DNA from: a virus
Lineage: Duplodnaviria > Caudoviricetes
Virus record (IMG/VR): IMGVR_UViG_3300027533_000034
Span: 1 to 48,526 of that record
Reading direction: 5' to 3' (one strand)
Length of the DNA: 48,526 nt
Shown here: positions 19,366-48,526 of the stretch, piece after piece
How the letters are laid out: the number at the start of each line of letters is the position of its first letter
Numbering within the stretch: position 1 is the stretch's first letter
Made by a program: the position numbers and the translations under genes
The notes under the pieces: generated by a model
What the model saw: only the letters and a program-made list of their open reading frames with translations
Databases searched by the model: none
Told to the model about the DNA's origin: nothing

Positions 19366-19548
19366 GTGATGGAGAAAAAGAAATACTGCAAGTTCTGTAA
19401 GAAGCTCATGGACATGAGCAAGCATTCTTCGTCATCCCTCAGATCAGATGGATACTGCACAGCCAAGTGCAAGAGGAAAGACCGCAACGAATACTACAAG
19501 GATCTGGACAGACTGCGAGTCTGCGACCCGGATACGGGATGGTTTTGA
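19366..19548 (+). CDS. Small Cys-containing protein
   Basis: CKFC...YCTAKC; TGATG coupling to the next gene. Confidence 0.55.
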   Translation: MMEKKKYCKFCKKLMDMSKHSSSSLRSDGYCTAKCKRKDRNEYYKDLDRLRVCDPDTGWF

Positions 19549-20819
19549 TGAAGATAAAAATCACAGAAATCACGCTCCCCTCGACAGAGGATGAGATAGC
19601 TGAGCGCGTCGCGGACCAGCTCACTGAGATTGCTGCATCCATGAAGGAGCAGGGACAGCTACAACCGATATCCGTTCGTTCGGTGAACGGTTCTTACGTC
19701 CTCAACTTCGGTGAGAAGCGGGTCCGCGCGGCCCAACTCATCGGGTGGACTGAGATTGAAGCCGTCATCGAGGATGTCTCAGAGAAGCAGGCGCACATCC
19801 TCCGTTGCCACGAGAATCTCAAGCGTTTCAATTTGCCATGGGATGAGCAGGCGCTCCTCACAGAGAAGCTGCACATCCTCAGACAGGAGGAACATGGCTT
19901 TGTTCCCAGTGGACGACCTAAGAGAGATGTCGAGAAAAAAGGATGGTCAGTCAGGGATACAGCCGATGAGCTTGGAGCGGCGCTGGGACTCGTTTCGGAG
20001 AACATCAACCTTGCCCGAGCAGTCCGAAACAACCCCGCACTGCGAGCCATCAAAGACAGAAAGACTGCAATCAAGCTTGTTCGACAAGAAGCACAGCGGG
20101 AGCTTGATAGAGTTGAGTCGACTGACCGGAAGAAGATTGATTCGAACGAGATATACCTGGGCGACGCCACTGCGGTATTGTCAACCTTCCCTGACCATTC
20201 GATTGACGGCGTTATCACGGACCCGCCGTGGCTGAACTTCTTCGACCCCTCCCTCAAGCGAGACGCGCGCACCTTCCCGGTGTTCAAGGAAATGTATCGC
20301 GTCCTCAAATACAACAGCATCTCCTACATCTTCGTCGGGATGGAGGACTATCCACATTACGTAGGCTGGGAAAGAATCGAGGAAGATGGCTCAACATTCC
20401 ACGTCAAGGGTGAACTCGAGAAAATTGGGTTCTCCGTCGCAAAAACCCCCCTCATCTGGCGAAAGACCGGCTCCCTCTCTCGTCGTGGAGTTAAAAGCTG
20501 GGAGTATGACCGCGACTTCGAGTTTATCATTGTCGCAGCGAAAGGCACTCCGGTCCTTACTTCGCCAACCCGGTTATCAGGCGTCAAAAGTTTCGCCGCA
20601 GTTCCTCCAGCAAGTCTTATCCATCCTAACGAAAAGCCAGTGGACCTGGTCAAGGACATACTCGAGGACTGCTCGCACAAACAGAACATTATTCTCGATC
20701 CGTTTGCGGGAAGTGGAGTTCTCGGATCGGCTTGCCTTGAAACAGGCCGTCGGTTCATCCTCATCGAACGCGAGCGGGAACGTTATGAGAAGATTGTCAA
20801 AAGGCTCAAGGGGGAGTAA
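19548..20819 (+). CDS. ParB-like domain fused to a beta-class N6A/N4C DNA methyltransferase
   Basis: GQLQPI.V...GEKRVRAA...ENLKR (ParB/Srx) plus HTH; ITDPPW (motif IV), HPNEKP, ILDPFAGSG (motif I). Confidence 0.9.
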   Translation: MKIKITEITLPSTEDEIAERVADQLTEIAASMKEQGQLQPISVRSVNGSYVLNFGEKRVRAAQLIGWTEIEAVIEDVSEKQAHILRCHENLKRFNLPWDEQALLTEKLHILRQEEHGFVPSGRPKRDVEKKGWSVRDTADELGAALGLVSENINLARAVRNNPALRAIKDRKTAIKLVRQEAQRELDRVESTDRKKIDSNEIYLGDATAVLSTFPDHSIDGVITDPPWLNFFDPSLKRDARTFPVFKEMYRVLKYNSISYIFVGMEDYPHYVGWERIEEDGSTFHVKGELEKIGFSVAKTPLIWRKTGSLSRRGVKSWEYDRDFEFIIVAAKGTPVLTSPTRLSGVKSFAAVPPASLIHPNEKPVDLVKDILEDCSHKQNIILDPFAGSGVLGSACLETGRRFILIERERERYEKIVKRLKGE

Positions 20820-21242
20820 ATGATTACAGTCTACCTCGCGTGTGACTCCAAGCTTCAGTCGGCCGCAAGAATGCTTCGAGAGAAGTTGGGCACGCGCGGC
20901 ATCATGGTTACTTCCCGTTGGCTCGACAACGACTTCGACCTCAACTGGACGACGGAAAAGCTCATCGAAGAAGCTGAGAAGGACTTGGTTGACATCGACG
21001 AGGCTCATTACTTCGTGCTCTACAATCCCAAGTCACATCATCGTGGCGGGACAGGCGGTCGGCACTTCGAGACGGGCTACGCCTACGCGCATGGCAAGCT
21101 CCTCATCTACTGCTCTGAGGAAGTGGAGAACGTGTTCCACAATCTGATAGACATTCACGTCGTGATGAAGGATAAGGAAACCTTCAACGACTTCGTTGAC
21201 ACTTTGGCGAACGTGATTCATTCAATCAAAGAGGATGAGTAA
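20820..21242 (+). CDS. Nucleoside 2-deoxyribosyltransferase-like / nucleotide N-hydrolase-fold protein
   Basis: VYLA, TSRW, DL.DIDEA..FV, GGRHFETGYAYA.GK, NVFH pattern. Confidence 0.7.
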   Translation: MITVYLACDSKLQSAARMLREKLGTRGIMVTSRWLDNDFDLNWTTEKLIEEAEKDLVDIDEAHYFVLYNPKSHHRGGTGGRHFETGYAYAHGKLLIYCSEEVENVFHNLIDIHVVMKDKETFNDFVDTLANVIHSIKEDE

Positions 21243-23718
21243 CTACGTCCCAGGTCAGGGTAATCCAAGCGCCAAACTGATGGTGGTTGGCGAAGCTCCG
21301 GGTGCGGTGGAGGATCAACTCCTCCGCCCATTCGCAGGCCCGTCTGGTAACTTGTTAAATGAGTTACTTGAGGAGGCCGGGACACATCGCAGAGAGGTCT
21401 ATGTGACGAATGTCGTCAAGTATAGGCCACCGCAGAATGATCTTCGACGCTTAGATCAGATCGGCCATAGCGTCGAGGAAGGGATGGTTCAGTTATGGGA
21501 GGAGATAAACGCGCTCAAGCCCAACTGCATCCTAGCTCTCGGGAACCTGTCCCTCAAAGCTCTAACGGGGATGGGAACCTACATCAAAAAATCGGGAAAG
21601 TATTCGGGCATCCTCACTTGGCGTGGCTCCATTTTGCGCGCCATGCAAGGGGACTATAAAGTCCTCCCAACTATCCATCCGGCCGCTTTACTTCGATCGG
21701 GGGACACTGAGGAGAAGGTGCTGTCATACAGCTCCCGCCTGTATATCTTGAATGATATCAAGCGGGCTGTAGCACAATCGCAGTTTCGTGAGTTCAGACT
21801 ACCACCTCGCACGCTCGAAATCGCTAGAAGCAGGGTGGATGTCTGGCGCTTCCTTGAGAAATACAAGCATCTCAAGAAAGTCTCGGTCGATATTGAGGTT
21901 CTCGCTGCGATACCCGTCTGCATCGCGTTGTCATTTAACACATGGCACGCTATGTCGATTCCTCTCATGGACATCTGGGCGCTCCAGAATAAGGAGTCTG
22001 GAATAGCCGACCACGAGTTTGATTACATGTGGCAGATGTTGATGGAGTTCTTAGGACAGCCTGACATTCAGGTCATCGGTCAGAACTTCAAGTTTGACGA
22101 TGAGAAACTCCGGCGCGCGTGTGGTATCGTTGTCAAGAACACCTGGTTCGACAACATGATGGCGGCTCATACCCTCCATTGTGAGCTTCCACGTAGCCAG
22201 GCATTCCTCACATCCATCTACACTGACGAGCCATACTATAAGGACGAAGGTAAAGAGTTCAACATCAAGAAGTCTCCCTGCGAGCAGTTGCTCTACTACA
22301 ATGCGAAGGACGCCGTTGTCGCCTTTGAGATTCACGAGCAGCTGTATGAGGCAATGGGGGAGATAAACCCACCCGGATTCCCCAACTGGCGTCAGTCATT
22401 CTTCTTCGACCATGTCATGCCCCTTCACGATCTTTACAGGGACATGGAGGATGAGGGATTCCCAGTCGATGAGGAGAAACGTAAGGAGCTGATTAAAGAC
22501 TATGAACAAAAAATTGTTGATGCAAAACGTGAGCTTGAAGCAATCGTTGGGTGGGACGTTAACCCAAACTCTCCAAAGCAGGTGGGGCTCTTACTCTATA
22601 AGGATTTCGCTCTCCCCGCGAGAGGCAAAAGAACTCCTGAAGGGATTAAAACAAGCACAGACGAAGATACCCTAACTGCATTACAGGCTAACGTCTGTAA
22701 GAAGCCTGAGCACAAGCGGGCTATCGACCTCATCCTCAAATTGAGGGGCTGGCATAAGGCTCTCGGCACGTATATCAAGGCTGCGTGTGATTTCGACGGG
22801 CGTATGAGAACGTCCATCCAGATTTGCGGCACGGAGACAGGTAGAAGCTCGAATAAGAAGCAAGAGGCACCCGTCAGACCGTTCAAAATGGGGCTTGCAT
22901 TTCAAACCATGTCAAAACATGGGGAGATGGGAGCAGAGCTTCGCAAGATGTTCATCGCTGAACCTGGGCACTCCATTATGGAGTTTGACTTGTCCCAGGC
23001 TGAGGCGCGCGTCGTAGCCCTGTTGGGACGTTCTGAGGAAACTCTTAGGCTGTTCAACACGACAGACATCCATAAGCTGACCTCCACATGGCTCTTCAAC
23101 TTCCCCATGAACCAAATCTCGAAGGAGATGCGGTTCGTCGGTAAGACATGCCGCCATGCGGGGAACTACGACATGCGGAAACGTCGGCTCATGGAAATCA
23201 TCAACACAGATGCCAAGAAATACAACATCGACATTAGTCCTGTCAGCGAGTGGAAGGCAGGGAAAATGCTGGACACTTTCCACGAGTTCTCACCGTGGAT
23301 TCGAGAGGTATTCCACAAGGAAATCGTCCAAGCTCTACAAGAGAACAACCTCACCCTCGTCAATCCGTTTGGCAGGGTTAGACAGTTCTGTGACCATTGG
23401 GGAGACGAGCTATGGCGCGAGGCTTATGCTCAGATACCTCAGTCAACCATCCCCGACCACATTCGGCGGGCCGCGATAAATCTGCGGCGAAGAGTTCCGG
23501 GTATTCGCATCATACTAGAAGCACACGATGCTCTAGTCTTTATGACGCCGAATCACCTAATCGAACCACACGCTAGAATTATTAAGGAGGAGTTCGAGAC
23601 ACCCATCGACTTCAGGCATTGCACGTTATCGCGTGGTGAGTTAATCATCCCCTGTGAGGCCAAGTTCGGTCAGAACTACAAGCAGTTGAATGACCTGGAC
23701 TTGAAACAGGTGGCATGA
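21235..23718 (+). CDS. polA: Family A DNA polymerase with an N-terminal uracil-DNA-glycosylase-like domain and 3'-5' exonuclease
   Basis: UDG family-4 motifs GEAPG..E...PF.G.SG, TNVVK.RPP and HPAALLR; exonuclease DIE, QNFKFD, YNAKD; polymerase TGR.S, DLSQAEAR (A), K...HAGNY (B), HDAL (C). Confidence 0.93.
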   Translation: MSNYVPGQGNPSAKLMVVGEAPGAVEDQLLRPFAGPSGNLLNELLEEAGTHRREVYVTNVVKYRPPQNDLRRLDQIGHSVEEGMVQLWEEINALKPNCILALGNLSLKALTGMGTYIKKSGKYSGILTWRGSILRAMQGDYKVLPTIHPAALLRSGDTEEKVLSYSSRLYILNDIKRAVAQSQFREFRLPPRTLEIARSRVDVWRFLEKYKHLKKVSVDIEVLAAIPVCIALSFNTWHAMSIPLMDIWALQNKESGIADHEFDYMWQMLMEFLGQPDIQVIGQNFKFDDEKLRRACGIVVKNTWFDNMMAAHTLHCELPRSQAFLTSIYTDEPYYKDEGKEFNIKKSPCEQLLYYNAKDAVVAFEIHEQLYEAMGEINPPGFPNWRQSFFFDHVMPLHDLYRDMEDEGFPVDEEKRKELIKDYEQKIVDAKRELEAIVGWDVNPNSPKQVGLLLYKDFALPARGKRTPEGIKTSTDEDTLTALQANVCKKPEHKRAIDLILKLRGWHKALGTYIKAACDFDGRMRTSIQICGTETGRSSNKKQEAPVRPFKMGLAFQTMSKHGEMGAELRKMFIAEPGHSIMEFDLSQAEARVVALLGRSEETLRLFNTTDIHKLTSTWLFNFPMNQISKEMRFVGKTCRHAGNYDMRKRRLMEIINTDAKKYNIDISPVSEWKAGKMLDTFHEFSPWIREVFHKEIVQALQENNLTLVNPFGRVRQFCDHWGDELWREAYAQIPQSTIPDHIRRAAINLRRRVPGIRIILEAHDALVFMTPNHLIEPHARIIKEEFETPIDFRHCTLSRGELIIPCEAKFGQNYKQLNDLDLKQVA

Positions 23719-31788: not shown

Positions 31789-32172
31789 TTAGACCTCTTC
31801 TCTTAAGAGTAACTCGCCCTTGTCAACTATCTCAAAACCAAAGTGCTTGGAGATGAGAGTAGCGAACGCCGGATCTTTAATGAAAGCGTATACCTGGTGT
31901 ATCCCAGCTTGGTCACAGCCTCTGAAGGCCTCAGCCATCAGGAGCTTGATTGCTTCTACGCGCTGTTTCCGTGATGCAGAGAGGTCGAGGATGAGCATGG
32001 CCTCAGCGAACAGCTTAACCTGTCCATAGCCAATGATTTGCTCATTCTCCACCACCACTGCATCCACGATTTTATTCCGTCGATCAGGGACGGAAAAATC
32101 AGAACTGTGATGGTCCCGCCAAATCTTGTCGATAGCGGGAATGTCCTCATCCCGGAAGCTCCTGAGTATCAT
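31789..32172 (-). CDS. GNAT-fold acetyltransferase-like protein
   Basis: MILRSFRDEDIPAI, VVENEQIIGYG and HFGFE pattern; positioned just before the ejection genes, as is common in podoviruses. Confidence 0.6.
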   Translation of the reverse strand: MILRSFRDEDIPAIDKIWRDHHSSDFSVPDRRNKIVDAVVVENEQIIGYGQVKLFAEAMLILDLSASRKQRVEAIKLLMAEAFRGCDQAGIHQVYAFIKDPAFATLISKHFGFEIVDKGELLLREEV

Positions 32173-32715
32173 CTAGAACCGTGTGCCGGACCACTGGAGA
32201 TTCGCATCCAGACCTAGCACGTTCCATGCGAATGATGAATTGCCACAGTGGTCTACGATGACATCGACGCCCCACGCGCCGGTATTATCAGACGTAGCTC
32301 GGTATGCGATAACGTCCATGGAAATCGTTCCAGTATTGGACTTGATGACGTAACCCCAACGGGTGTCGCTGGCGCGTAGCGTCTTGACCAACCCATCCAT
32401 GAACTGCCAGCCAGCTTCGCCATAAAGCGCCACGCAGGATTTCGTCACGAGCAGAGGATTTGCCGTCGCGAATGCCTGAGCGATAGCCTGTGAACCTGAC
32501 GGGATACCGAGCGGCGTCTCAGTCCCACCCGTAGTCGGGTTGGGTAACGGAGCCGTCGGATTCGCGACCGGCGCGAAGTTGGTCAGGTCATGGATGTCAG
32601 TAATGTTCGTATTCGTGTTCGTGTTCGTGCTTGTGACGTTTACCGTCGGACCAGTCGTGTTGTATTCACACCCGATGGCGAACAGTAGCAGAACAGATGC
32701 TGCGAGTTTCTTCAT
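32173..32715 (-). CDS. Lipoprotein (180 aa)
   Basis: Start re-called to MKKLAASVLLLFAIG|C (type II signal peptide/lipobox) after AAGGAG; Thr/Asn/Pro linker followed by a globular domain. Confidence 0.8.
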   Translation of the reverse strand: MKKLAASVLLLFAIGCEYNTTGPTVNVTSTNTNTNTNITDIHDLTNFAPVANPTAPLPNPTTGGTETPLGIPSGSQAIAQAFATANPLLVTKSCVALYGEAGWQFMDGLVKTLRASDTRWGYVIKSNTGTISMDVIAYRATSDNTGAWGVDVIVDHCGNSSFAWNVLGLDANLQWSGTRF

Positions 32716-34121
32716 ACAATCTCCTTGAATTCCTCTAGGTTCATCGGACGCATCAGGGCTGCGCATGAGTTCTGACCACTTAGGAACTTCTCCAACACAA
32801 AGTCATTGGTCAATCCAATGTAACCCGTCCACACATCTGAAACGTATGTGTAGAAGATTACGTGGTCACAGTGGACTTTCAATCTTCTGAGGAGTTCTCG
32901 GGCTTGCTCAGGGCGCGCTTCAAAGAGTCGATTAACTGCAATGAGAGCAAGATAATAATGACCAGCCCAATAACTATGGTCAAAGATATCACACTGATGA
33001 ACAACACCATTGTGTCTACCGAGCCTTTTAACAGCCTTCTTATGGACTGGTTTATGTAGCTCAACCCCGACTGGAACTGCACCCGAGACATCACTGATGG
33101 CCTCTAGAAGTCGACCATTGCCGCAACCAAGATCAAGGACTTGTGTCCCTGGAGGAATCTTCAGAGCTAGTGCTGCCTCCACGATCATAGCGTGCGCGTT
33201 ATTCATGCCTTCTTGACTTTTGAAACCGTTGTCGGTGTAATCGTTCACCAACTGAACAGTTTCCTGAAATGGAAACGGGCCTCTACCACCCTCCGCTGGA
33301 TATGTAGAACCTTCCTTCGAAATCTCCACCCTCTCGCTGAGAGCATCAGTGTTGTAGACCAGCTTGAGAACAGGTGTCGTCAAGATGGCTACACCATGCA
33401 GTGATGACCACTTGAAGGGCCAGCTTAGAATCTCCTTCAGCCAGTGCATCTCTGCAATCATCTCCACTTTGCGCGTCACTGTGGCGAGCGCGTCTGCTAC
33501 CTTCACCGACTCTTGACATACCATCGAGCATGGAAGGTGCGACACCATCCTCAGCCCTAAGTGACGCAGGAAGACGTTGTTCTGATAGTTTCCTACGACC
33601 TGGAGTTGATGTTGAAAATCCAGAGTTTTACAATCTTCCATGCCAACAGTGGAAGTAATTGCAACATCTCTCCAACCTTGTTCTTTCCACGACCACTGGT
33701 AGAATTCACGACAACACTCCGGGAAGCCAAGCATTTCCCCGATCGCCCGGTCGTCACCCTCTTCCCACGCACTAATGAAGCGGGAGGCAAGCTCTGGTCT
33801 TGTCACGACTACCCTGTAGCTCCACGGGTGACCCTCGACGTATGCTGTCGACGCATTCTGATAGCCATTACCATTAGCCTGTCGACTCAGTGGAACTGCT
33901 ACTAGCCCTGCCCTGAGTGCCCACTTCGACAACTCAGCTAGGTATTCTGGACCTGCAACTTGAAGAGCAGCGGGCTTTACACCAGCTAGCACTGCAAATC
34001 TTTCAATCGTCTCCCAGACGCCGGAGATTCTCTGGAAGCGCGGCTCCCAAGTCTCACGAGCTACTGGGCTTGCCCAGATAGTTCTCATGAACTCCGGGAT
34101 GTTAATGTCTAGTCTCTCCAT
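32712..34121 (-). CDS. Fusion of a Cys-motif domain (DUF483-like) and a class I SAM-dependent methyltransferase
   Basis: GEMLGFPECC and SHLPCSMVC in the N-terminal domain; VLDLGCGNGRLL...GVE...CDIF in the C-terminal domain. Confidence 0.8.
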   Translation of the reverse strand: MERLDINIPEFMRTIWASPVARETWEPRFQRISGVWETIERFAVLAGVKPAALQVAGPEYLAELSKWALRAGLVAVPLSRQANGNGYQNASTAYVEGHPWSYRVVVTRPELASRFISAWEEGDDRAIGEMLGFPECCREFYQWSWKEQGWRDVAITSTVGMEDCKTLDFQHQLQVVGNYQNNVFLRHLGLRMVSHLPCSMVCQESVKVADALATVTRKVEMIAEMHWLKEILSWPFKWSSLHGVAILTTPVLKLVYNTDALSERVEISKEGSTYPAEGGRGPFPFQETVQLVNDYTDNGFKSQEGMNNAHAMIVEAALALKIPPGTQVLDLGCGNGRLLEAISDVSGAVPVGVELHKPVHKKAVKRLGRHNGVVHQCDIFDHSYWAGHYYLALIAVNRLFEARPEQARELLRRLKVHCDHVIFYTYVSDVWTGYIGLTNDFVLEKFLSGQNSCAALMRPMNLEEFKEIV

Positions 34122-35305
34122 ACGACGGGTATCCCTCTTTCGTCTGAATCTCCGTGTCCGTCACCGTGAGGGACATCGCCGTGACCATCGCCATGTGAGT
34201 CTCCGTGGCTGTCTCCGTGCTGTGCATCGCCATGACTCGAAGCATCATGAGTTGCGTCCTGAAATACCTGATGACGGACGCGCGCTCCTAAATCTTTCTC
34301 GATGATTGTGAAGAGGTGATACCAAAGTTCACAATCCGCGGTTCGGTTTCTCCAGTCACCATCGATGGCAGTTCCAGGACACTGCCCCTTGCAAAGATTG
34401 AGGTATCGACAATCCTTGCATCCACCGAACTGCTGTGGAACCTGTTGTAGAACCAAGAATCGCTCGTTACCAGGAGTATCCGCTTTGACCCAGTTGATGC
34501 CATCCTTGTTAGTCCTCCCACAGTTGCTCTGCGTTCCGTCAGGACCGACGCCGCGCACTGCTGCCGTTGTGAGTGGGTCGCAGTTGTTCCAGACGCATGA
34601 GACGTGAGGATTCTGCTCAGTCAACAACCGAGCTATGTCGTTGAATGGCATGATGTCGAGCTTGCTCACCTTCGAGAACTCGTAGAAATGAACGAAGGCA
34701 TCGATGGTCTTAGCCTGCGACATTTCCAGTCCGTTATGGCATGCTTCCTTCTCAAGTGTGTGCAGGTTGACATACTTGATGCCCATCTTTTGAAGTTTCT
34801 GCATCCAGTTCGTCATGTGAGCGAGTGCCCGGTCAGTCCCGGCATTCCAATCGTGAAGCGTCACAATCAGACTTGGCGGGAGTCCTGCTGCGCAGAGCTT
34901 TGCGATTGCTGACTCTGTTCTCGCCGTCGCGACTCCCGTCTCGCTGCCCATCTTTCGAGCATCATTAAGCTCTCCAGGGCCATCCACACTAATGCCAACG
35001 TAAGTGCGATATCGCTTAAAGAGAGCAATGTGCTCGTCAGTGATGAGACTGCCGTTGGTTTGTATACCGTTACGTCCAAACTGCTCCAAGCCAAACTTGA
35101 GAACCTCTTCGATATGTTCAATGGGAGCGAGCAGAGGTTCTCCGCCAAAAAGTGCGAAGTCCGAACCCTCTCTCATAAGTTGGACCTTTGCCCGCTCCCA
35201 ATCTCGGGGCACGCTGATATTGCCAGCATTCCTCATGGGGTCCTGATAACAGTAACCGCACTGAAGATTGCAAGCGATACCAACGGGCAAGTATTCTATC
35301 GACAT
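34109..35305 (-). CDS. Radical SAM/SPASM-domain enzyme (peptide/protein maturase type) with a C-terminal HGD-repeat tail
   Basis: CNLQCGYC (CxxxCxxC), FGGEPLL, IQTNGSLI, GISVDGP; SPASM-type CVWNNC..NC and CKDCRYLNLCKGQC...C. Confidence 0.93.
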   Translation of the reverse strand: MSIEYLPVGIACNLQCGYCYQDPMRNAGNISVPRDWERAKVQLMREGSDFALFGGEPLLAPIEHIEEVLKFGLEQFGRNGIQTNGSLITDEHIALFKRYRTYVGISVDGPGELNDARKMGSETGVATARTESAIAKLCAAGLPPSLIVTLHDWNAGTDRALAHMTNWMQKLQKMGIKYVNLHTLEKEACHNGLEMSQAKTIDAFVHFYEFSKVSKLDIMPFNDIARLLTEQNPHVSCVWNNCDPLTTAAVRGVGPDGTQSNCGRTNKDGINWVKADTPGNERFLVLQQVPQQFGGCKDCRYLNLCKGQCPGTAIDGDWRNRTADCELWYHLFTIIEKDLGARVRHQVFQDATHDASSHGDAQHGDSHGDSHGDGHGDVPHGDGHGDSDERGIPVVWRD

Positions 35306-36318
35306 TATGGTCCTACGTAAACAGGGTAGTCAGTGTGCGCGCCGTCAGTGTGAGTCGCTGGCACGTCCGTGTGCGTGTCGTCATGGGTATCGATATGAGC
35401 CGAGTCAGTATGTGCTAAGTCCCCATGACCGAAGTCGTAATGCGCGTCCTCATGAGCTCTGTCAGTGTGTGCATCAGAGTGACCCGAGTCACTATGGGGC
35501 GCACCATCCCCATGATTGTCGTTGTGTGACTGGTCCGTGTGTGCAACTACGGGAGGCGTATCCGTATGCACATCATCATGCACATCAGAGTGAACATCAT
35601 AATGAATATCATAATGTTGCGTTGGGCCACCCGCACTGTCGTTGTGGTCGAAGTGAGCATCCTGATGCCCTGGATTTGTCGGGTCTGTGTTTGTATAGTC
35701 ATAATGACCATCAAAATGATTCCCAACGCCATTGGCACTATAAGCACCATCCTCATGCCAATCGCTATGTGGGGTATCACCATGAGTATCGCTATGAGGA
35801 GTATCAGTATGAGTGTCACTATGCGCCGTGTCGTCATGCCAGTCAGTATGGGCTACGTCACCGTGAGGCACGTCACTGTGAGTGTCCTGATGAGCGAAGT
35901 CGTCATGCCAGTCGTTATGTGCAGCATCCGAGTGCGGCGTATCACTATGAGGCCCGTCAGCGTGTGTGTCTGTATGAGTATCGCTATGCGGGACACCGAT
36001 GCCGTCGATGTGAGCTATGTCAGTATGGGCCTGATACTTGTTACCGTTCGCAAGCCAGCTCGCGAGATTGTTCTCAATCCACATCGAGCCGGAGATGGAA
36101 CCAACCTTTGGGATTGGATTCACTGCTAGGACTATAACCTCAAGTAAACCCTCACTGATGTAATGAAGATCATTTCCCTCAATCCAGATAGAGCCAACTA
36201 AAGCTCCAGCAGGCGCAGCGATGTAGTTAATCGCAGGATAATACCACTCCTGCCCTGATCCATCGACATAGTGAAGGTCATTGCCTTCAATCCAAATTGA
36301 GCCTGTGACTTTAGGCAT
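35305..36318 (-). CDS. His-x-Asp repeat protein (45 HxD motifs); candidate tail-fibre needle and rSAM substrate
   Basis: Three N-terminal GS(I/M)WIE repeats; every His from residue 98 to 330 is in an H-x-D triplet; TAATG coupled on both sides. Confidence 0.85.
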   Translation of the reverse strand: MPKVTGSIWIEGNDLHYVDGSGQEWYYPAINYIAAPAGALVGSIWIEGNDLHYISEGLLEVIVLAVNPIPKVGSISGSMWIENNLASWLANGNKYQAHTDIAHIDGIGVPHSDTHTDTHADGPHSDTPHSDAAHNDWHDDFAHQDTHSDVPHGDVAHTDWHDDTAHSDTHTDTPHSDTHGDTPHSDWHEDGAYSANGVGNHFDGHYDYTNTDPTNPGHQDAHFDHNDSAGGPTQHYDIHYDVHSDVHDDVHTDTPPVVAHTDQSHNDNHGDGAPHSDSGHSDAHTDRAHEDAHYDFGHGDLAHTDSAHIDTHDDTHTDVPATHTDGAHTDYPVYVGP

Positions 36319-36794
36319 TAGCTCGTCGCGTATCTATCGACACCAAATGGAATCACGAGTGCTTCATGGATATAAACACGCCTAGCCTTTGCTGCATTGC
36401 TTCCGATATCGCAAGCTGCATGAGTATTGAAAATGATGGGGCAGTTTATCGTGAAGGCGGTAAGATTCATGATGGTTCCGCCTGAGATAGAAACAGCGTT
36501 CGAGTTCTGAACTCCCATCGTGCCAATGCCAAGATTGCCACGAGCTGTGGCTGGGTCGCCAGTTCCAGTTCCACCACCCGATACAGCAAGATATTTGAGA
36601 GCAAATCCTAAACCATTATATTCATGAAGTGCATAAGTCGCAGGAGTCAGGCGCACCATTTGAATGGCACCGACTGGAACTCCTCCAACCGGCGCGTTCA
36701 GACACAACGTGATAGCATCAACGTCCCTGTCTTTCGCCTCGTTAACAAAGACGTCATACTGCGTCGTAATGGTAGGATTTGACCAATTAGCCAT
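36318..36794 (-). CDS. Tail-associated protein
   Basis: LAVSGGGTG....ARGNLGIGTM motif typical of phage fibre/tail proteins. Confidence 0.7.
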   Translation of the reverse strand: MANWSNPTITTQYDVFVNEAKDRDVDAITLCLNAPVGGVPVGAIQMVRLTPATYALHEYNGLGFALKYLAVSGGGTGTGDPATARGNLGIGTMGVQNSNAVSISGGTIMNLTAFTINCPIIFNTHAACDIGSNAAKARRVYIHEALVIPFGVDRYATS

Positions 36795-46609: not shown

Positions 46610-48526
46610 TATTCTCCACCTTCATTTGATGGCGGCTTGTTCTCGTCGCCTTCTTCTTCAGACTCAGCTTCAGCTTGAGCAGCCATCTGAACCTGATAAT
46701 CATGCATCTGCATGTGGCTCACCACGTTCATGTAGCCAGCGGGATTCGTCTCCTTCGCATCGAGGCCAACCTCAGACTTGAGCCAAGCCTTACAAGTTTC
46801 AGCCTCGACAGGATGGTTCTCCCACAGAGCAATCGGAATCGTAGGCTGTAGAACTTCCTGCCCATCAGGTCCAGCAATGCCCGTCGGAGTGGGCTGCGCC
46901 ATGATGAGCTGGGAGATTTCATACAGCTGTTTGTTGCGGTCGTCATCTCCAGGGATGTAGAGATCAGGGAAGCCAACCGTCGCAGCAATGATTCCTGAGT
47001 TCTCAGGGTGCTGGAACACAGCCTCGATCATGGGATTCTTCATCGCGATGAGTCCCATGAGAATGTCACGCTTCTGCGCCCACGAGATCGGGAATGCCTC
47101 GTTGATATCAGCCTCGACCTGACCCACCTTCCCATTCATCTCAGCCCGACGAATCCAGACGTTGATGAAGGAGCTTCCCTTCTTTTGAACGTATCTCTCG
47201 TCATCCTTCATGTTGACGGCGAAGCTTCTGACGCTCTTGCTCATCAGCTCCGACCACCATGTCTTGATGTTTATCCACGAGAGGTTCAGACGCTGGAGAG
47301 CCATCGCACGGGACGACTCATATTCTTTGGCAGTCCCACCACCGCCCTCCATCGCACCACCCCAAATCGTCGGGAAGGCGCCACTGACGAACTGACCAGC
47401 CTGCGTCATTCGGTCAGCAAACGTATCAACTTCCTGGGAGAGGGCTGACGCTTTGATGGTATGGAACGAGGAGTCAAGACCCATCTGAGGCCGACTCTTT
47501 GCGGGATAAAGCATCCCCGGTCTGGCTTCGGACTTTTTGTATTGCTCGGCGTCGAGGGCGTCTGACTCATAGAAAGTTTCGGGGATACCAAACTCAATCG
47601 TTTCGAGAGTAAGGTTCGTCAGTTCGTTCGTGATGTCCTGGACCGGCACTAGGGACTGTGCAAGGGGGTCTGCATGAAGATGACTTGAGGTCGGGTCGAT
47701 TGTGATGGTCCAGTGATCATCCAGCCGGTCTTCGAGCGCCTCAACGACGAGATCCTCGATTCTGGCGACGTAGACCCCGCTCGGGTAGAGGCTCTTGAGA
47801 TAAGCCACATCATCTGGGCTTCCGAGAGCGTTGAAGGCCCAGGGTCGTATCCAACTACGACGGAAGGTGGAGAGATCACGGGGAGTTTCGCCTCGGTAAT
47901 CCGCATTGCGGCGACCCATCCTATCGCCCGTGGTGTCATCACCAGTTGGCGTGACCTTTTCACCTGCCTCAGGATAGACTTCTTTGAGGTATGCGGTGTG
48001 CTCCTCAGTTTCGAGCGTGAGTAGAGGAATCTGAGTCTGCGAAGTGCACCAATGAGGCACCTTGACATGAAGTGCCGAGAAAACTTCGATGCTTTCATGA
48101 GATTTCGGCTCTTCAGTCGTTCCTGTGATGCGAGAAATGATTTCTTCGTAGTCCTCGAAGTCTGGGGGAGCTTCAATGCCGCAATTTGGGCAAACCTGAG
48201 AACCGTTCGGCGGCTGAACAGTTTCTGGACCCATTTGAGGAGGCTCGACTTGAGCGGGAGCGGGTCCAAAGCTCTCTTGACCCATCATCGAGGGGTTTGG
48301 GGGAGTTGCCGGCGCAGACGGCAAGTCGAATTGCTCAGAACCGAGCATCTGACCGCAGTTTGGACAGAAATTGTTGCGATTTACGACCGGAACGTCGGTG
48401 TAAATCGACTTTTTGAAGGTTCCGAACTGTGTCGTGTCCTTATTTTCGTTGTAGGCGAACACAGTTCCGAAATTATAGAGGATGTAGAGTGCGCGAATGA
48501 AGATTAGCTGACCTTTGTTGCGCTTT
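46609..48526 (-). CDS. Portal protein, C-terminal part
   Basis: Frame is open through the end overlap and joins 1..677; LVPVQDITNELTNL and TAKEY...R..ALQRL portal-like segments. Confidence 0.85.
   Translation of the reverse strand, partial: KRNKGQLIFIRALYILYNFGTVFAYNENKDTTQFGTFKKSIYTDVPVVNRNNFCPNCGQMLGSEQFDLPSAPATPPNPSMMGQESFGPAPAQVEPPQMGPETVQPPNGSQVCPNCGIEAPPDFEDYEEIISRITGTTEEPKSHESIEVFSALHVKVPHWCTSQTQIPLLTLETEEHTAYLKEVYPEAGEKVTPTGDDTTGDRMGRRNADYRGETPRDLSTFRRSWIRPWAFNALGSPDDVAYLKSLYPSGVYVARIEDLVVEALEDRLDDHWTITIDPTSSHLHADPLAQSLVPVQDITNELTNLTLETIEFGIPETFYESDALDAEQYKKSEARPGMLYPAKSRPQMGLDSSFHTIKASALSQEVDTFADRMTQAGQFVSGAFPTIWGGAMEGGGGTAKEYESSRAMALQRLNLSWINIKTWWSELMSKSVRSFAVNMKDDERYVQKKGSSFINVWIRRAEMNGKVGQVEADINEAFPISWAQKRDILMGLIAMKNPMIEAVFQHPENSGIIAATVGFPDLYIPGDDDRNKQLYEISQLIMAQPTPTGIAGPDGQEVLQPTIPIALWENHPVEAETCKAWLKSEVGLDAKETNPAGYMNVVSHMQMHDYQVQMAAQAEAESEEEGDENKPPSNEGGE
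48344..48526. repeat. Terminal direct repeat (right copy)
   Basis: Matches 1..183 with 4 mismatches. Confidence 0.95.

Follow-up and report, generated by a model that had tools for sequence, protein, structure and literature searches.

We report a three-part gene module in which a protein carrying a long array of His-x-Asp (H-x-D) triplets, a radical S-adenosylmethionine (SAM)/SPASM enzyme and a DUF483-like partner travel together in viruses and cells alike; the module is not confined to phages. It was analysed in a 48,526-nt record of a tailed virus (Caudoviricetes; IMG/VR record IMGVR_UViG_3300027533_000034), rated 100% complete, the whole of which is called the window below. The module is real and widespread; within the literature searched, its locus is in print and its substrate motif and likely function are not. 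We consider it highly probable that the radical SAM enzyme modifies the array, and we lean, with less assurance, towards the view that it does so by closing cyclophane rings within the motifs of a hairpin fibre on the virion. The elements on which this reading turns are, in window coordinates:

35305..36318, minus strand: H-x-D array protein of 337 amino acids (aa), the predicted substrate and probably a virion fibre, with 45 H-x-D triplets and the same architecture in homologues

34109..35305, minus strand: radical SAM/SPASM enzyme of 398 aa, without the N-terminal extension of a RiPP (ribosomally synthesised and post-translationally modified peptide) recognition element; Pfam PF04055 at 57.5 bits, cut-off 29.5

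33252..34121, minus strand: DUF483-like domain, aa 1-290 of the third gene product, a probable metal-binding and obligate partner with conserved C136, C137, H195, C198, C202 and H242

32712..33251, minus strand: class I SAM methyltransferase domain with a VLDLGCGNG motif, probably for optional tailoring; Methyltransf_25 at 27.4 bits, cut-off 27

A preliminary description of this region, made from the sequence alone, had counted 45 H-x-D triplets in the first gene. The count is confirmed: 45 of the 47 His residues stand in the motif, and the other two both lie in the N-terminal domain. Shuffling residues 97-337 10,000 times gave a mean of 9.3 triplets (standard deviation 2.4, maximum 19) against the 45 of the real protein, and the array holds no HxS triplet. 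The array is a motif at the protein level, because His is encoded by both of its codons (30/15) and Asp by both of its own (27/18), and Tandem Repeats Finder reports only short repeats of 2-4 copies in the gene; the codon mixture and these repeats also rule out a DNA tandem-repeat artefact as its origin. The same architecture is found in 48 distinct homologues and in Cumys_13/phiMa_29 of Thermus phages. Elsewhere, no PHROG family matches the array protein, an Atlas search with it gave no usable match, and tblastn of the array alone against cultured phages, with the low-complexity filter on, found nothing; the sole strong BFVD match is a 342-aa protein, probably phiMa_29 to judge by its length.

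Among the 48 distinct head-domain proteins from the collected loci the array is usually H-x-D, with 20-22 H-x-N motifs in four of them (L019, L020, L172, L175); the array of locus L057 has 37 F-x-N motifs, and Y-x-D and W-x-D variants also occur. Across 87 arrays, Asp or Asn stands two residues downstream of His in 96% of cases, of Phe in 47%, of Tyr in 37% and of Trp in 39%, compared with 22-24% in shuffled arrays. These variants fit the aromatic-x-Asx rule of three-residue cyclophanes better than they fit metal binding. The preliminary description had likened the motif to those of triceptides, and the enrichment of H/F/Y/W-x-D/N, together with the F-x-N and H-x-N arrays, agrees with the aromatic-x-X rule of such cyclophanes.

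Linkage between array and enzyme was examined in loci collected with an alignment of 120 radical SAM sequences: 55 viral, 80 genome and 80 metagenome loci, the last two being the best 80 of 217 and of 392, with near-identical contigs included in the counts. Where 3 kb was present on both sides, all 35 viral loci have an array within 3 kb of the radical SAM gene, as do 43 of the 61 cellular and 20 of the 24 metagenomic loci; of 821 control open reading frames (ORFs) more than 5 kb away, none has one. In 16 of the 18 cellular misses a neighbour has fewer or wider-spaced H-x-D triplets, as judged by eye, and none was seen in L091 and L128. For the reverse test, a DNA pattern of four H-x-D triplets retrieved 114 stretches, of which the 80 with flanks, on 73 contigs, were used. 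True arrays make up 61 of these, and 52 of the 61 have a radical SAM gene, rising to 41 of 42 where 3 kb flanks were available; a further 11 stretches are low-complexity His/Asp runs or off-frame matches without a radical SAM gene, and one falls below the array cut-off and has the enzyme. The co-occurrence proposed earlier as a check on the system is therefore tight in both directions. The DUF483-like domain is conserved as well, being present in 50 of 51 viral, 73 of 75 cellular and 51 of 52 metagenomic loci with 1 kb downstream, and it is fused to the radical SAM enzyme in 15 of 80 cellular loci.

We take the core to be the array, the radical SAM enzyme and the DUF483-like domain, because these three co-occur, the methyltransferase is optional and the fourth gene proposed earlier, a lipoprotein, is restricted to close relatives. 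Of the four-gene system in the preliminary description, what stands is thus the linkage of the first two genes with the DUF483-like half of the third. A methyltransferase motif comes after the DUF483-like domain in 54 of the 63 viral partners and 34 of the 70 cellular ones; the methyltransferase is missing from Cumys/phiMa and from about half of the cellular loci and so cannot be regarded as essential. The lipoprotein is a passenger, shared by the window's own record with L146 and L147 alone:

32173..32715, minus strand: lipoprotein-like ORF of 180 aa, with a signal peptide and Cys16, outside the conserved module

Its start is most likely at 32715, which has an AAGGAG resembling a ribosome-binding site and agrees with the starts of two homologues, rather than at the longest-ORF start, 32766. 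Of 35 related phages, 17 have nothing in this slot and most of the rest have unrelated genes there; the slot, which lies between the partner gene and a 127-aa gene, is a hot spot for unrelated inserts of 100-560 aa.

The array protein itself can be divided into four parts:

36028..36318, minus strand: all-beta head domain, aa 1-97, with three GSxWxEG repeats, a probable anchor; 11 strands in the AlphaFold2 (AF2) model, predicted local distance difference test (pLDDT) 84-96

35749..36027, minus strand: outgoing arm, aa 98-190, with 20 H-x-D triplets spaced mostly 4-5 aa apart, a spacing mirrored by the return arm

35593..35748, minus strand: variable tip segment, aa 191-242, a probable turn and candidate receptor contact, the most gapped part of a 35-homologue alignment

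35308..35592, minus strand: return arm and closing strand, aa 243-337, with an AF2 strand at 333-336 and last residues predicted to dock on the head

Motif spacings run 5,8,4,4,5,5,5,4,5,4,5,5,4,5 over the first 14 intervals and, read in reverse, 5,7,4,4,5,5,5,4,5,4,5,6,4,5 over the last 14, giving 12 of 14 mirror matches (p=0.00035 by within-arm shuffling). After dereplication, mirror symmetry is significant at p<0.05 for 31 of the 64 viral arrays, 11 of the 22 metagenomic ones and 1 of the 25 cellular ones, and a parallel-repeat control for 4, 0 and 1 of them, respectively. Head-to-tail duplication as the source of the symmetry was rejected on the basis of this control, which is rarely significant. 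In five proteins an insertion near the array start is paired with one near the array end, and both are missing in others; the spans of the two arms covary (Spearman 0.50, n=35, related sequences). Like was not found paired with like across the hairpin, with 4 non-His pairs against 5.6 expected and the same middle residue in 65 pairs against 73. The AF2 model, built on 35 sequences, reaches a pLDDT of 88 in the last block and 39-54 over aa 101-320, giving no confident fold for the unmodified array, and P332 is invariant among the 35 homologues. Since the closing strand at 333-336 would dock on the head, the chain would return to its start, and on these models the phage array is predicted to form an out-and-back hairpin. 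Several homologues have Cys pairs or aromatic loops in the tip segment.

Arrays also occur on very different tail proteins, being found inside the homologue of central tail fibre J in L037 (E 1e-45) and at the C-terminus of tail-block proteins of 700-1470 aa, most of them without a family match. Gene context and these fusions support the earlier assignment of the arrays to tail proteins and point to a probable portable surface module on virions. Further H-x-D proteins were seen in phiLo (L227, 13807-16935), where a second one carries two long arrays on the opposite strand, and downstream of the module in L022 (10879-12330), where a 483-aa protein has 8 triplets.

The head domain was found in 534 representatives at E<=0.001. 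Of the best 150, 87 carry an array, another 43 are too short and the remaining 20 fall outside the array cut-off; 3 of the 20 still have H-x-D triplets and most others have Cys-rich or other tails. The head appears to be a modular carrier, since it also fronts Cys-rich domains that lack an array, as in P0134, P0156, P0169, P0185, P0201, P0203 and P0204, where those domains are globular. A locus search by head domain returned one. The head bears a weak likeness to beta-prism II lectins, its best match being LlpA (Z 4.9, root-mean-square deviation (rmsd) 3.5, 85 residues aligned), which is below the tool's trust level; its 11 strands and the C-terminal strand add up to 12, and the beta-prism II fold of the monocot mannose-binding type has three four-stranded sheets.

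The second gene encodes, as proposed earlier, a complete radical SAM/SPASM enzyme, with PF04055 above its cut-off, the CxxxCxxC motif at C12, C16 and C19, and SPASM-type Cys at C237, C242, C262, C296, C299, C305, C309 and C325. Seven of these eight auxiliary Cys are invariant among 120 homologues, as are H182, E185, R264 and K267. Its best scores are with SPASM families of peptide and sulfatase maturases, in keeping with the maturase role first suggested for it: the top NCBIfam scores, 74-81 bits, are those of DynA, the anaerobic sulfatase maturase and AmcB. No NCBIfam family cut-off is reached, the nearest being DynA at 80.6 of 450 bits, and the same holds for the curated triceptide synthases (AmcB 74.4/425, GrrM/OscB 55.2/310, YhhB 54.6/445 and XyeB 41.2/450 bits). 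The tree of this enzyme, midpoint-rooted and with sampling biased to best matches, parts viral from cellular sequences; because of that rooting and sampling we draw no direction of transfer from it. The enzyme also carries triplets of its own, unreported in the preliminary description:

34148..34234, minus strand: seven H-G-D triplets at the C-terminus of the radical SAM enzyme, read from the sequence

At least three H-x-D triplets are present in the last 110 aa of 50 of the 55 viral enzymes and of 15 of the 80 cellular ones, and in some larger phages (L263, L255) the enzyme has about 30 motifs of its own. This tail may be a self-substrate, a decoy or a metal site. Four separate Asn-rich lineages have each changed T265 of the enzyme, a residue that 103 of the 112 enzymes paired with almost pure H-x-D arrays retain; with so few events, this is suggestive only of a matching between enzyme and substrate. 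Several mixed H-x-D/F-x-N arrays occur with two tandem radical SAM paralogues in L253, L255, L263 and L304, which have T4-like neck genes; one paralogue keeps T265-N266 and the other does not, hinting at a division of labour by motif.

The partner scores 21.4 bits with DUF483 (PF04467), below the gathering threshold of 25, and 75 of 124 homologues match this family weakly at E<=0.01; DUF483 is annotated in 16-20% of the members of matching Atlas clusters. Its C136, C137 and C202 are invariant and H195, C198 and H242 nearly so. The AF2 model of the domain has a pLDDT of 94.7. A fold search gave no Foldseek match at E<=0.001, the best VIA match is 2guk, which has no assigned function (Z 9.0, rmsd 3.1, 104 aligned, residues 30-149), and sequence searches of the PDB with partner and head profiles yielded nothing useful. 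Fusions of the DUF483-like domain to the radical SAM enzyme, the methyltransferase, an aKG-HExxH (alpha-ketoglutarate) hydroxylase or DUF364 suggest that it serves as an adaptor or metallo-partner. For the window's methyltransferase, plantazolicin methyltransferases give the best PDB matches, which are limited to the SAM-binding part; the PIMT score is 15.9 of 159 bits, and PIMT is outside the 25 families listed for 65 homologues.

Cellular counterparts of the module bear on the nature of the product. We scanned 136 neighbouring proteins or segments, hand-picked from 180 script candidates together with a few partner tails and array-protein N-termini. PqqD is present in 5 cellular loci, NTP_transf_5 in four and DUF364 in three; all 5 candidate aKG-HExxH hydroxylases tested score above the cut-off, 3 of them fused to a DUF483-like domain, and there is one NHLP leader. 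No Que or Dpd family was detected among the 136, except for one QueA-type gene beside L121. Because the cellular neighbours are PqqD, HExxH hydroxylases and leader peptides, modification of a peptide rather than of DNA is indicated. Many cellular arrays follow a twin-arginine-like, sometimes lipoprotein-like N-terminus (identified by regular expression and by eye); six cellular precursors tested gave no match to the NCBIfam Tat-signal families, and the motif may instead be a leader. Some cellular precursors have a single terminal H-I-D. Short leader-type precursors with one or two terminal triplets were seen at L104:4713-4952, L118:10230-10508, L129:6672-6905, L132:6660-6893 and L098:4440-4742, and several of these have additional radical SAM or B12-binding genes next to them. 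Bacterial proteins of 900-1900 aa end in an array in L088, L090, L106, L111, L113, L119, L120, L121, L124, L126 and L136, and those scanned have no Pfam or NCBIfam match. In L067, L070, L076, L086, L093 and L102, the last from an archaeal bin, the array is followed by a coiled coil predicted by eye.

Taken together, these observations lend themselves to a mechanism modelled on triceptide chemistry. A 5'-deoxyadenosyl radical would take hydrogen from the beta-carbon of Asp or Asn, which would then couple to the ring two residues upstream, with a loss of 2 Da per motif and up to about 90 Da in the window's array. The DUF483-like domain would be the metal-binding partner that presents or tailors the substrate, and the methyltransferase would add an optional methyl group. 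Three- and four-residue cyclophanes keep peptides in a beta-strand shape (10.1101/2024.12.16.628070, in its available part), so the modified array could form a stiff hairpin where the unmodified one could not. Two modified arms of about 90 aa would zip into a rod roughly 30 nm long, as estimated from the textbook strand rise, with the variable tip outermost and probably serving host contact. The C-terminal strand is predicted to complete the folded head, and the hairpin fibre to be displayed on the phage tail. More broadly, fibre rigidity in many unrelated tailed viruses would come from dozens of cyclophane rings and not from the protein fold, installed by a leaderless, processive radical SAM-DUF483 machine on a single-chain antiparallel hairpin tens of nm long, making a RiPP-type polymer a virion material; this generalisation is offered tentatively, with the balance slightly on the side of doubt.

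Several points weigh against cyclophane formation on a virion hairpin. The radical SAM enzyme scores 50-80 bits where the cut-offs of cyclophane synthases are 300-650, and the sulfatase maturase scores equally well; over half of the F/Y/W positions lack Asp or Asn at +2. The sole studied His-x-X repeat protein, HxsA, shows +8 Da, not -2 Da (PMC13128918, available part), and 45 rings on an uncleaved protein are without precedent in the literature covered, where characterised triceptides are short and proteolytically released (PMC12912966, part available). The Cys/His partner, which has no characterised structural match, could alter the chemistry. Mirror symmetry is significant in no more than 31 of the 64 viral arrays, and related phages do not count as independent; the head domain also stands on proteins with unrelated C-termini and no array; and nine arrays have no radical SAM gene in their record, all nine records being 2-25% complete.

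The alternative that survives best, unlikely in our estimate and the most serious of those weighed, keeps the substrate and its place and changes the chemistry: HxsA-like carbon insertion, Asp beta-methylation or hydroxylation, epimerisation, decarboxylation, or a covalent His-Asp ladder between the arms. It draws on HxsA, where the +8 Da falls on one motif (SHRSS) and involves two radical SAM enzymes (PMC13128918), on the cyclopropylglycine of TVGG repeats, which are modified without a crosslink between residues (PMC9062424, as far as its available part goes), and on the swapping of partner domains among methyltransferase, aKG-HExxH and DUF364. A free choice of H, F, Y or W at position 1 combined with a fixed +2 spacing is, however, the pattern of a three-residue cyclophane. 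For the inter-arm ladder, mirror symmetry places His and Asp of opposing arms face to face, and pairs of facing Asn motifs are fewer than chance predicts (12 versus 17.5 +/- 2.0, from few lineages). The enzyme probably works inside single motifs, given that cellular arrays of the same enzyme family lack mirror symmetry (1 of 25) and that certain precursors end in a lone H-I-D.

It is improbable that the modified array protein acts off the virion, in the envelope of the infected cell, for example in superinfection exclusion, as HxsA blocks phage DNA entry (PMC13128918). This precedent, the twin-arginine-like or lipoprotein-like N-termini of many cellular arrays and the temperate nature of Cumys/phiMa-like phages (PMC11437467, available part) would suit such a role; the phage array protein, however, has no signal peptide, and arrays are fused to the central tail fibre and other tail-block proteins within the late structural operon.

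An unmodified, metal-bridged hairpin with His and Asp ligands, with the radical SAM gene linked for some other reason, is very improbable. Facing motifs would make two His and two Asp available, and the DUF364 of three cellular loci is described as 'heavy-metal chelation'. Such a hairpin would resemble the T4-type HxH iron sites, iron-binding HxH fibres reportedly being in print. Against this, the F-x-N and W/Y-x-D arrays (L057, P0254, P0165) cannot supply these ligands, non-ligand motifs are not paired with each other, and the near-perfect two-way linkage to the enzyme would be left unexplained. Metal binding by a modified array is possible. Modification of phage DNA by the module, as the available part of PMC11437467 proposes for Cumys/phiMa, has some backing in the cyanobacterial homologues reported there near deazapurine genes and in the QueA-type gene beside L121, and is the most remote of the alternatives given the absence of any other Que/Dpd family from the scanned neighbours against repeated PqqD, HExxH and leader-peptide matches, the position of the module in a tail operon and the H-x-D array encoded by the third gene of the Cumys/phiMa module.

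Cyclophane formation on a virion fibre would, if true, add to the known ways in which fibres are built, control host range or stability at one more level and put the type of chemistry that makes antibiotic peptides to a new use. It would also give DUF483 a function and provide a leaderless enzyme able to close dozens of rings in arrays carried by widely differing proteins, a property of value for peptide engineering. The proposal is directly testable, as Thermus thermophilus HB8 supports growth of Cumys, phiMa and phiLo, and a single terminal H-I-D is present in some bacterial precursors.

The wider setting is that of a phage genome with terminase, PolA, helicase and tail-fibre matches (Pfam, PHROG), which looks podovirus-like from its gene order. 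The preliminary description had placed four coupled genes on the minus strand, and reading the sequence bears out their positions, strand and couplings: TAATG at 36318 and 35305, a 13-nt overlap at 34109-34121 and ATGA at 32712-32715. They lie between fibre-like genes and three genes labelled there as putative ejection genes. Promoter and terminator scans were at about chance level. Immediately upstream of the array gene is one further element:

36318..36794, minus strand: fibre-like protein, TAATG-coupled to the array gene, with weak PHROG tail fibre matches (E 9e-5)

In L040, L043, L044, L045 and L056, a segment with a similar LP(V/I)GADK-type motif at its end is, by eye, joined in frame to the head domain. 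On the other side of the module, the gene at 31789-32172, a 'GNAT' only by its label in the preliminary description, has no Pfam, NCBIfam or PHROG match. Elsewhere in the window, 21235-23718 encodes a PolA with an N-terminal uracil-DNA-glycosylase domain and 19467-20819 a ParB-N domain fused to an N6/N4 DNA methylase (Pfam). The last 100 bases (48427-48526) are found again at 84-183, which hints at a terminal repeat or circular overlap in a record that is nevertheless classed as linear.

Among known systems, the closest is the 'rSAM module' of the Thermus phages Cumys and phiMa, a three-gene set noted in 2024 with its function left open and DNA modification suggested (PMC11437467). The available part of that paper also notes DUF483 fusions to radical SAM enzyme and methyltransferase; it mentions no His repeat, the word 'histidine' being absent from the main text, and its Figure 3B lists similar loci, which may bear on how much of the distribution is in print. 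Of the earlier claim that no such phage system had been described, one part stands, in that the substrate motif and likely function were not found in print; the gene trio itself was already there. Searches of the literature, with subscription papers mostly outside their reach, found no phage radical SAM peptide maturase acting on a virion protein and no H-x-D-repeat system. Among 50,697 annotated phage records, close matches to the radical SAM enzyme and partner come from phiLo, phiMa and Cumys, and to the head domain from phiMa and Cumys. The Cumys/phiMa module has the same three genes in the same order (Cumys_13/12/11), with identities to the window of 38% for the head, 48% for the radical SAM enzyme and 32% for the DUF483 protein; its unknown third protein is an H-x-D array poor in Lys and Arg, and in Cumys the array gene directly follows baseplate and collar-fibre genes. 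The two settings differ in that the Thermus copies lack the methyltransferase carried by the window's third gene, and that Cumys and phiMa are myovirus-like with baseplate genes.

Triceptides are defined by links from an aromatic residue to a C-beta on three-residue motifs, and the His-specific HtkB accepts Phe too (PMC11499958). With their synthases (HaaB, YhhB, HtkB, GrrM/OscB, XyeB, FxsB, ChlB) the module shares a SPASM radical SAM enzyme, the aromatic-x-X motif and the interchangeable H/F/Y/W; aKG-HExxH and PqqD accessory genes occur both in triceptide systems and in cellular copies of the module. It differs in scoring far under every family cut-off, in its DUF483-like partner and in a third motif position that is almost always Asp or Asn. 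Triceptide precursors are short and have a leader, whereas the phage substrate is a whole protein with 20-90 motifs and no leader, linked protease or exporter; family scans of the window's proteins found no linked protease gene near the 337-aa head-plus-array protein. The HXS defence system (HxsA-D) has in common with the module His-x-X repeats on a working protein, dedicated radical SAM chemistry and a place at the interface of phage and host envelope. It differs in being bacterial and anti-phage, in its two radical SAM enzymes with HxsD, and in its five HxS repeats and +8 Da (PMC13128918). The window has one radical SAM enzyme, which scores 36.8 of 370 bits for HxsB (TIGR03978), no HxsD in nine proteins scanned and zero HxS. 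Fibre tips of the T4 gp37 type reportedly bind iron through HxH motifs and likewise have periodic His motifs in a tail fibre. Unlike in those tips, the motif of the present arrays is H-x-D/N with F, Y or W tolerated, and it is tied to a radical SAM enzyme and mirror-symmetric within one chain.

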